Assembly (NCBI RefSeq): GCF_053078305.1
Contig: NZ_CP166879.1
DNA: 64,000 nt
Strand: one strand, 5' to 3'
Program-made: the position numbers and the translations under genes
Part shown: positions 41,247 to 41,411 of the stretch, in pieces
Numbering within the stretch: the first letter of the stretch is position 1
How the letters are laid out: each line of letters opens with the position of its first letter
The notes under the pieces: model-generated
The model's database searches: none
Told to the model about the DNA's origin: nothing
The model's input: the letters and a program-made list of their open reading frames with translations, nothing else

Positions 41247-41411
41247 TCACTCCACATCCTCCCTGCGTAACCCGATATCCCTCAACCGTTCATCACTCAT
41301 CTGCTGTAACACCCGTCGGGCCTGCATTTGCCGCCGCCAACGCCTCACCGCCTGCCAGAGTTGTACAAGTCTGATAAACGGCGTTTTGGCTTTGTTTTCG
41401 TGAAATTCCAT
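41247..41411 (-). CDS. yjiS: small protein DUF1127
   Basis: 54-aa ORF MEFHENKAKTPFIRLVQLWQAVRRWRRQMQARRVLQQMSDERLRDIGLRREDVE, below the ORF-track size cutoff; found by manual translation. Confidence 0.7.
   Translation of the reverse strand: MEFHENKAKTPFIRLVQLWQAVRRWRRQMQARRVLQQMSDERLRDIGLRREDVE

Follow-up and report, generated by a model that had tools for sequence, protein, structure and literature searches.

yjiS, a known 54-amino-acid DUF1127 gene of Escherichia coli, and the candidate operator in the spacer that it shares with the MocR-type gene yjiR

The proteins of the DUF1127 family are small (~45–75 aa) and carry their domain at the C-terminus; their mean arginine content is ~14% and a DIGL motif is conserved among them (PMC8034643; PMC11707872; PMC12501420). 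YjiS is described as the only DUF1127 protein of E. coli by Remme et al. (2025; PMC12501420), and the phenotypes given there for an E. coli yjiS mutant are an increase of the pstS transcript, a faster uptake of phosphate and a slight growth defect. According to the same paper, the interaction of E. coli YjiS with PhoR was observed in a bacterial two-hybrid assay, in one fusion orientation only, and between the purified proteins in a Far-Western blot; E. coli YjiS also restored the repression of pstS in an Agrobacterium triple DUF1127 mutant (PMC12501420). The strain or allele of E. coli YjiS behind the PhoR experiments is not stated in the text consulted.

The Salmonella protein has been described separately. 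Its transcription and translation were confined to minimal medium that induces SPI-2 (Venturini et al., 2025; PMC11707872), with translation detected by Ribo-seq and western blot, and the protein was found in the inner-membrane fraction, from which high salt freed it, as expected of a peripheral protein. Furthermore, it co-purified with inner-membrane proteins including SsrA and was linked to the SsrA/B system, and single substitutions of arginine residues or in the DIGL motif left the infection phenotype unaffected (PMC11707872). A 2025 review reports that Salmonella YjiS fails to complement the Agrobacterium mutant.

The locus analyzed here lies in a stretch of 64,000 nucleotides, referred to below as the window. 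A small frame on its minus strand had been proposed, from the letters alone, to be yjiS. The overall best explanation, and one in which we place high confidence, is that the frame is a genuine, translated and monocistronic yjiS, encoding a mostly helical DUF1127 protein that most likely acts as a PhoR modulator.

The yjiS reading frame and its start codon

The features of the frame were as follows.

41247..41411, minus strand: coding sequence of yjiS, with 54 codons and a TGA stop (by translation, Pfam, RefSeq and dN/dS)
41418..41423, minus strand: Shine-Dalgarno sequence AGGAGG, 6 nt 5' of the ATG at 41411 (read from the sequence)
41424..41426, minus strand: upstream in-frame ATG, not the real start, source of a mechanical 59-aa ORF

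The minus strand of positions 41247–41411 was translated as MEFHENKAKTPFIRLVQLWQAVRRWRRQMQARRVLQQMSDERLRDIGLRREDVE, followed by a TGA stop; the product is 54 aa long, and both its start and its end agree with those quoted in the sequence-only reading. The description of the protein as arginine-rich was borne out by its composition, since 11 of the 54 residues are arginine (20%); the net charge is +5. The assignment to DUF1127 was likewise upheld when an HMM search was performed: the protein scored 46.6 bits against Pfam PF06568 (DUF1127/YjiS-like; gathering threshold 23.3, E 2.8e-12), and its residues 18–54 covered positions 1–37 of the 37 in the model, that is, the whole model. The DIGL motif corresponds to residues 45–48, inside the domain. 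Hence, in its length, C-terminal domain, arginine content and DIGL motif, YjiS fits the traits of the family. NCBIfam held no model for YjiS.

The name was also sustained. A 1-kb stretch around the frame was 100% identical in three RefSeq E. coli chromosomes, where PGAP names the genes symE, "yjiS: DUF1127 domain-containing protein" and yjiR; in one carrier of the identical DNA, strain A16, the yjiS coding sequence has 165 nt (WP_000394274.1) and its position corresponds to 41247–41411. The K-12 ortholog (b4341, NP_418761.1) is also of 54 aa and is identical at 49 of 54 residues (91%). The frame is thus almost certainly the E. coli gene yjiS. The statement that the gene had been missed holds for the ORF track supplied at the time, and not for public annotation, which has long carried yjiS. 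K-12 annotation has listed the gene for decades, PGAP assigns it in thousands of genomes, and recent papers deal with its function. It is already known, annotated and partly characterized, and is not a discovery; the practical value of the case is one of calibration, in that a fixed cutoff of 60 aa conceals real conserved small genes.

In the mechanical ORF list, dozens of ORFs of 30–60 aa were found within one 4-kb stretch, so that the length of an ORF is no evidence by itself; the yjiS frame stands above chance because of its Pfam match together with a coding type of conservation. Ortholog loci were retrieved from Escherichia sp., Citrobacter, Klebsiella and three metagenomic enterobacterial contigs, and the comparisons, of the genes as well as of the spacer footprints described below, were made over 8 taxa. 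The frame was open at 53–54 codons and began with MEFHEN in all 8 taxa, from Escherichia to Klebsiella. Pairwise dN/dS was between 0.06 and 0.24 in all estimable pairs but K-12 versus Escherichia sp. (0.78), and the variable alignment columns were distributed as 28/20/45 over the three codon positions. yjiS is under purifying selection. The invariant columns of the protein include MEFHEN, P11, F12, W25 and LQQMSDE-L-D-GLRR.

The mechanical ORF starts at the ATG at 41426, 15 nt before the one at 41411. It is 59 aa long, and the track omitted yjiS because this length falls below its 60-aa cutoff, as had been supposed. This longer start was rejected: in K-12 and Klebsiella the upstream ATG or GTG is cut off from MEFHEN by an in-frame TAG, the ATG at 41424–41426 overlaps the Shine-Dalgarno sequence, and RefSeq annotates the 54-aa form. 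At the corresponding position, the orthologs from Citrobacter and the metagenomic contigs lack any start codon. Therefore, with the extension closed by a TAG, the upstream ATG lying over the Shine-Dalgarno sequence and the start absent elsewhere, the 54-aa form is taken to be the product. A Shine-Dalgarno core, GGAGG or GGGGG, was present at the equivalent position in 8 of the 8 taxa.

The symE side and the Immigration Control Region

The features on the 3' side of yjiS were the following.

40866-41204, plus strand: symE, convergent with yjiS (Pfam SymE_toxin; NCBIfam equivalog, 219 bits)
40795-40871, minus strand: SymR antitoxin sRNA (Rfam RF01809, 94.3 bits against a gathering score of 61)
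41211..41237: G+C-rich 11-bp hairpin (CCCCTTCCC...GGGAAGGGG) in the interval that separates the stop codons of the convergent genes symE and yjiS
41235..41246: breakpoint of homology with K-12, ~10 nt past the yjiS stop, at the end of TGAGGGGGGA (pairwise alignment with MG1655)

The interval between symE (40866–41204, plus strand) and yjiR (41588–43000, plus strand) had been called empty apart from yjiS, and nothing else of note was found there. SymR is antisense to the 5' end of symE and lies 370 nt from yjiS, on the symE side. The RNA fold of the hairpin at 41211–41237 had a free energy of -25 kcal/mol (z = -2.8), and the hairpin is located in a segment that is non-homologous to K-12. A terminator scan detected no canonical intrinsic terminator 3' of yjiS, and the hairpin has no T-run on either strand; it may be a 3'-end structure shared by symE and yjiS. 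In the Citrobacter and metagenomic orthologs, a canonical stem with a T-run terminator follows yjiS, which fits a monocistronic gene.

On the side of yjiS, the variable Immigration Control Region is bounded by the breakpoint at 41235–41246. Beyond yjiS, the order of genes in K-12 is yjiT, yjiV, mcrCB and then symE, whereas in the window symE is directly adjacent; the downstream neighbor differs because the cassette of the Immigration Control Region is a different one. The junction of symE with yjiS was found in 917 of 5426 complete E. coli genomes. The genes yjiPRS and yjiAXY have been described as the "framework" of this region (PMC4498929; PMC12707154). The stretch formed by yjiS and its upstream spacer was detected by megablast in 3739 of the same 5426 genomes (69%), and the remaining ~31% had no detectable copy; yjiS is thus dispensable, and this framework gene is not universal.

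Additionally, several observations were made on both flanks. A restriction cassette occupies positions ~32000–40651, all on the plus strand, with brnT/brnA, a restriction endonuclease gene, hsdM, hsdS and hsdR, and its HsdR has ~1087–1091 aa; the hsdM-hsdS-hsdR cassette differs from the EcoKI hsdRMS/mrr genes of K-12 in family and orientation. On the other side, an intact gene of a recombination-promoting nuclease of the Rpn family (YhgA-like, yjiP/rpnD; 314 aa) is present at 43242–44186 on the minus strand, in contrast to K-12, where rpnD is annotated as a pseudogene. Between yjiR and rpn, at 43112–43193, matches below threshold to the Rfam models ES036 (CssrF) and naRNA4 (CssrE) were obtained, and this segment is probably a REP-type repeat element.

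The gene and its upstream DNA were also compared with those of K-12. Like the window, K-12 has a divergent yjiR, a spacer of 176 bp and the same Shine-Dalgarno sequence and start. The coding sequences differ at 11 of 165 nt (6.7%), and the 190 nt upstream of yjiS are ~97% identical (~3% differ). A nucleotide difference of 6.7% exceeds what is usual for core genes of E. coli, and the divergence of yjiS fits the raised polymorphism and recombination described around the Immigration Control Region. At the protein level there are five substitutions (K7R, T10A, R14G, A31T and R44K), all of which fall outside the invariant columns.

Pairing with yjiR and the divergent control region

The features on the 5' side of yjiS were as listed here.

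41588..43000, plus strand: yjiR, MocR-type regulator (Pfam GntR winged-helix and Aminotran_1_2, a fold-type-I aminotransferase-like domain)
41412..41587: yjiR-yjiS divergent control region of 176 bp, with invariant footprints, candidate YjiR operator
41560-41568: footprint CCATACAGA, invariant across 8 taxa
41542-41547: footprint TACAGA, invariant across 8 taxa
41508-41512: footprint TTTTA, invariant across 8 taxa
41490-41500: footprint TGTATGTTAAA, invariant across 8 taxa
41465-41472: footprint TCTGTATT, invariant across 8 taxa

In every context retrieved, yjiS was divergent from an adjacent gene encoding a GntR/aminotransferase protein of 470–480 aa, with a spacer of 176–177 bp. The DNA 3' of yjiS varied among these contexts while the pairing of yjiR with yjiS stayed. 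None of the named MocR equivalogs of NCBIfam was matched by YjiR above its cutoff, and for this reason the ligand of YjiR cannot be inferred.

The spacer was conserved in an uneven manner: 80 of its 176 columns were invariant among the 8 taxa, and these were clustered as short blocks. The arrangement of the boxes is CCATACAGA-N9-GTACAGA and TCTGTATG-N22-TCTGTATT. The 64-kb window contains 17 copies of TACAGA, overall as chance predicts; four of the 17 lie inside the 176-bp spacer, two on each strand, where ~0.05 would be expected. The offsets of these boxes from the yjiR start, of 22, 40, 85 and 115 nt, were identical across the 8 taxa; a single box was altered in one Escherichia sp., and the DNA between the boxes varied. 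Also invariant in sequence and spacing from Escherichia to Klebsiella, and noticed in connection with the segment at 41465–41568, were a variant TGCAGA box and an ATACAG that overlaps the start of yjiR.

Operators of GntR/MocR regulators typically have a TGT core and consist of direct or inverted repeats (PMC5320631). We therefore infer that the invariant TACAGA boxes are a candidate YjiR operator through which YjiR may control yjiS, a proposal to which we give slightly less than even weight; under it, YjiR would probably also control its own gene. The Pho box of PhoB consists of CTGTCAT repeats with a period of 11 bp. A reading of the TACAGA boxes as a PhoB Pho box or a PhoP box was set aside by eye, as a matter of inference, because boxes 18 and 30 bp apart fit neither.

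A promoter scan gave no consensus sigma-70 promoter in the spacer, and a -10/-35 pair could not be assigned by eye; for K-12, a weak TTAACC-15-TAAAAG is listed by Shimada et al. The absence of a consensus promoter agrees with a factor-dependent expression of yjiS, in which a weak promoter would be controlled by YjiR through the conserved TACAGA boxes. Neither yjiR nor MocR is mentioned in the two papers on YjiS that were searched (PMC12501420; PMC11707872), and yjiR, yjiS and DUF1127 are absent from the main text of a survey of MocR regulons (PMC5320631).

Taken further, yjiR and yjiS might form a conserved regulatory module of two genes, in which the orphan, PLP-dependent YjiR would sense an amino compound, bind the four TACAGA/TCTGTA boxes and switch on YjiS, which would then retune a sensor kinase (PhoR in E. 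coli). This extension is tentative and is held somewhat less firmly than the operator itself; if true, it would couple a signal of the amino-compound or vitamin-B6 type to phosphate signaling. The conserved architecture of the yjiR-yjiS operator is the sole mildly new material of this analysis and is offered as a lead, and the pairing with yjiR and the TACAGA boxes may help those who work on DUF1127 proteins.

Functional readings and comparison with known systems

For the protein itself, PhoR binding, the phosphate phenotype, membrane association and translation are taken from the literature. The sequence-only reading had named a DUF1127 match and evidence of translation as the points on which it depended; the match is present, and the translation of the Salmonella ortholog has been recorded by ribosome profiling and western blot (PMC11707872). 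According to the proposed mechanism, YjiS would lie on the cytoplasmic side of the inner membrane, bind the sensor kinase PhoR directly and dampen the output of PhoR/PhoB, so that its loss would raise the expression of pstS and accelerate the uptake of phosphate; it would thus be a small protein that tunes a two-component sensor kinase, much as MgrB does with PhoQ. The mechanism with the best support is that of a small, basic and peripheral protein with PhoR as its binding partner and a lower output of the Pho regulon as its effect; RNA binding is the minority alternative. The allele in the window probably works in this way too, a view transferred with some reserve from the literature on the K-12 allele, to which it is 91% identical. 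The target of YjiS may be lineage-specific, or the binding may be driven by charge and not be specific, since the Salmonella ortholog reportedly fails to complement the Agrobacterium mutant and points to another kinase, SsrA.

The structural predictions told little about the mechanism. AlphaFold2, run with an alignment of 13 sequences, gave a single helix over residues 10–52 that was confident only at ~11–30, and the pLDDT of 67.9 is one of low confidence, too weak a basis for fold searches. The hydrophobic moment of residues 11–28 was 0.35, a value equalled in 4366 of 10000 shuffles (44%), so that in this test the segment did not stand out as amphipathic. The sole match of a PDB profile search with YjiS was the SAM domain of Tankyrase-1, which at E = 0.59 was not significant and was discarded as evidence. 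YjiS contains no nuclease or DNA-binding domain.

The alternative that survives best, although unlikely, is that YjiS is mainly a small RNA-binding protein similar to CcaF1. Its arginine-rich helices would then bind sRNAs and mRNAs and alter their processing and stability, and its effects on PhoR would be either indirect or a moonlighting activity. CcaF1 is an RNA-binding protein with effects on the maturation and turnover of sRNAs (PMC8034643), it belongs to the same Pfam family as YjiS, and the 20% arginine content of the latter would suit such a role. In addition, CcaF1 complements the Agrobacterium phosphate phenotype according to PMC12501420, so that one protein may do both jobs; the SAM-domain match echoes a published similarity of DUF1127 to Smaug-SAM, yet without significance at the E value given above. 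Nevertheless, YjiS is only ~20% identical to CcaF1, and the enterobacterial YjiS proteins form a separate clade. The locus has no co-transcribed sRNA cluster 3' of yjiS, where the next feature is the convergent symE; no downstream cluster of the CcaF1 type was found with Rfam (E <= 1), which returned SymR alone. In PMC12501420, moreover, the authors state that there is no evidence of RNA interaction by Salmonella YjiS and that the partners of this protein are inner-membrane proteins.

It is very improbable that YjiS belongs, together with yjiR and yjiP/rpn, to a "framework" aiding recombination into the Immigration Control Region, or to a defense island. The position of the gene would suit such a role, with the variable region beginning ~10 nt past the yjiS stop and the intact rpn gene adjoining yjiR; however, PADLOC gave no match of YjiS to a defense model (E <= 0.01), and in Citrobacter and Klebsiella yjiR-yjiS is followed by a MarR/efflux operon and not directly by restriction genes. 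The protein, moreover, has neither a nuclease nor a DNA-binding domain, and its published phenotypes concern phosphate and virulence. Finally, a frame open merely by chance between two genes, as the abundance of 30–60-aa ORFs might suggest, or the 59-aa form offered by the ATG 15 nt upstream, has next to no probability and is already refuted by the Pfam match (E 2.8e-12), the purifying selection on a frame of 53–54 codons in 8 taxa, the TAG that closes the extension in K-12 and Klebsiella and the overlap of the upstream ATG with the Shine-Dalgarno sequence.

Returning to YjiS as a putative modulator of PhoR, its relation to the described systems can be summarized. The YjiS of Salmonella Typhimurium is, like that of the window, an enterobacterial DUF1127 protein of 54 aa with a DIGL motif and 11 arginine residues; it differs in its proposed partner, SsrA/B, a system that E. 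coli lacks, and in its induction under SPI-2 conditions. SDP1-3 of Agrobacterium tumefaciens share PF06568 with YjiS, bind PhoR and repress pst, but have only ~24% similarity to YjiS and <50 aa; there are three of these paralogs, and none has a yjiR partner (PMC12501420). CcaF1 of Rhodobacter sphaeroides (RSP_6037) also has a DUF1127 domain and is arginine-rich; unlike YjiS, it is of 71 aa, ~20% identical, RNA-binding and co-transcribed with four CcsR sRNAs (PMC8034643).

The PhoQ modulators MgrB and SafA are unrelated to YjiS in sequence, and YjiS differs from both in having no transmembrane segment and in being extractable by salt, as observed for the Salmonella ortholog. Both of these modulators are integral to the membrane and work on PhoQ through its periplasmic domain. 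Their likeness to YjiS is one of concept, in that a small protein binds and tunes a histidine kinase.
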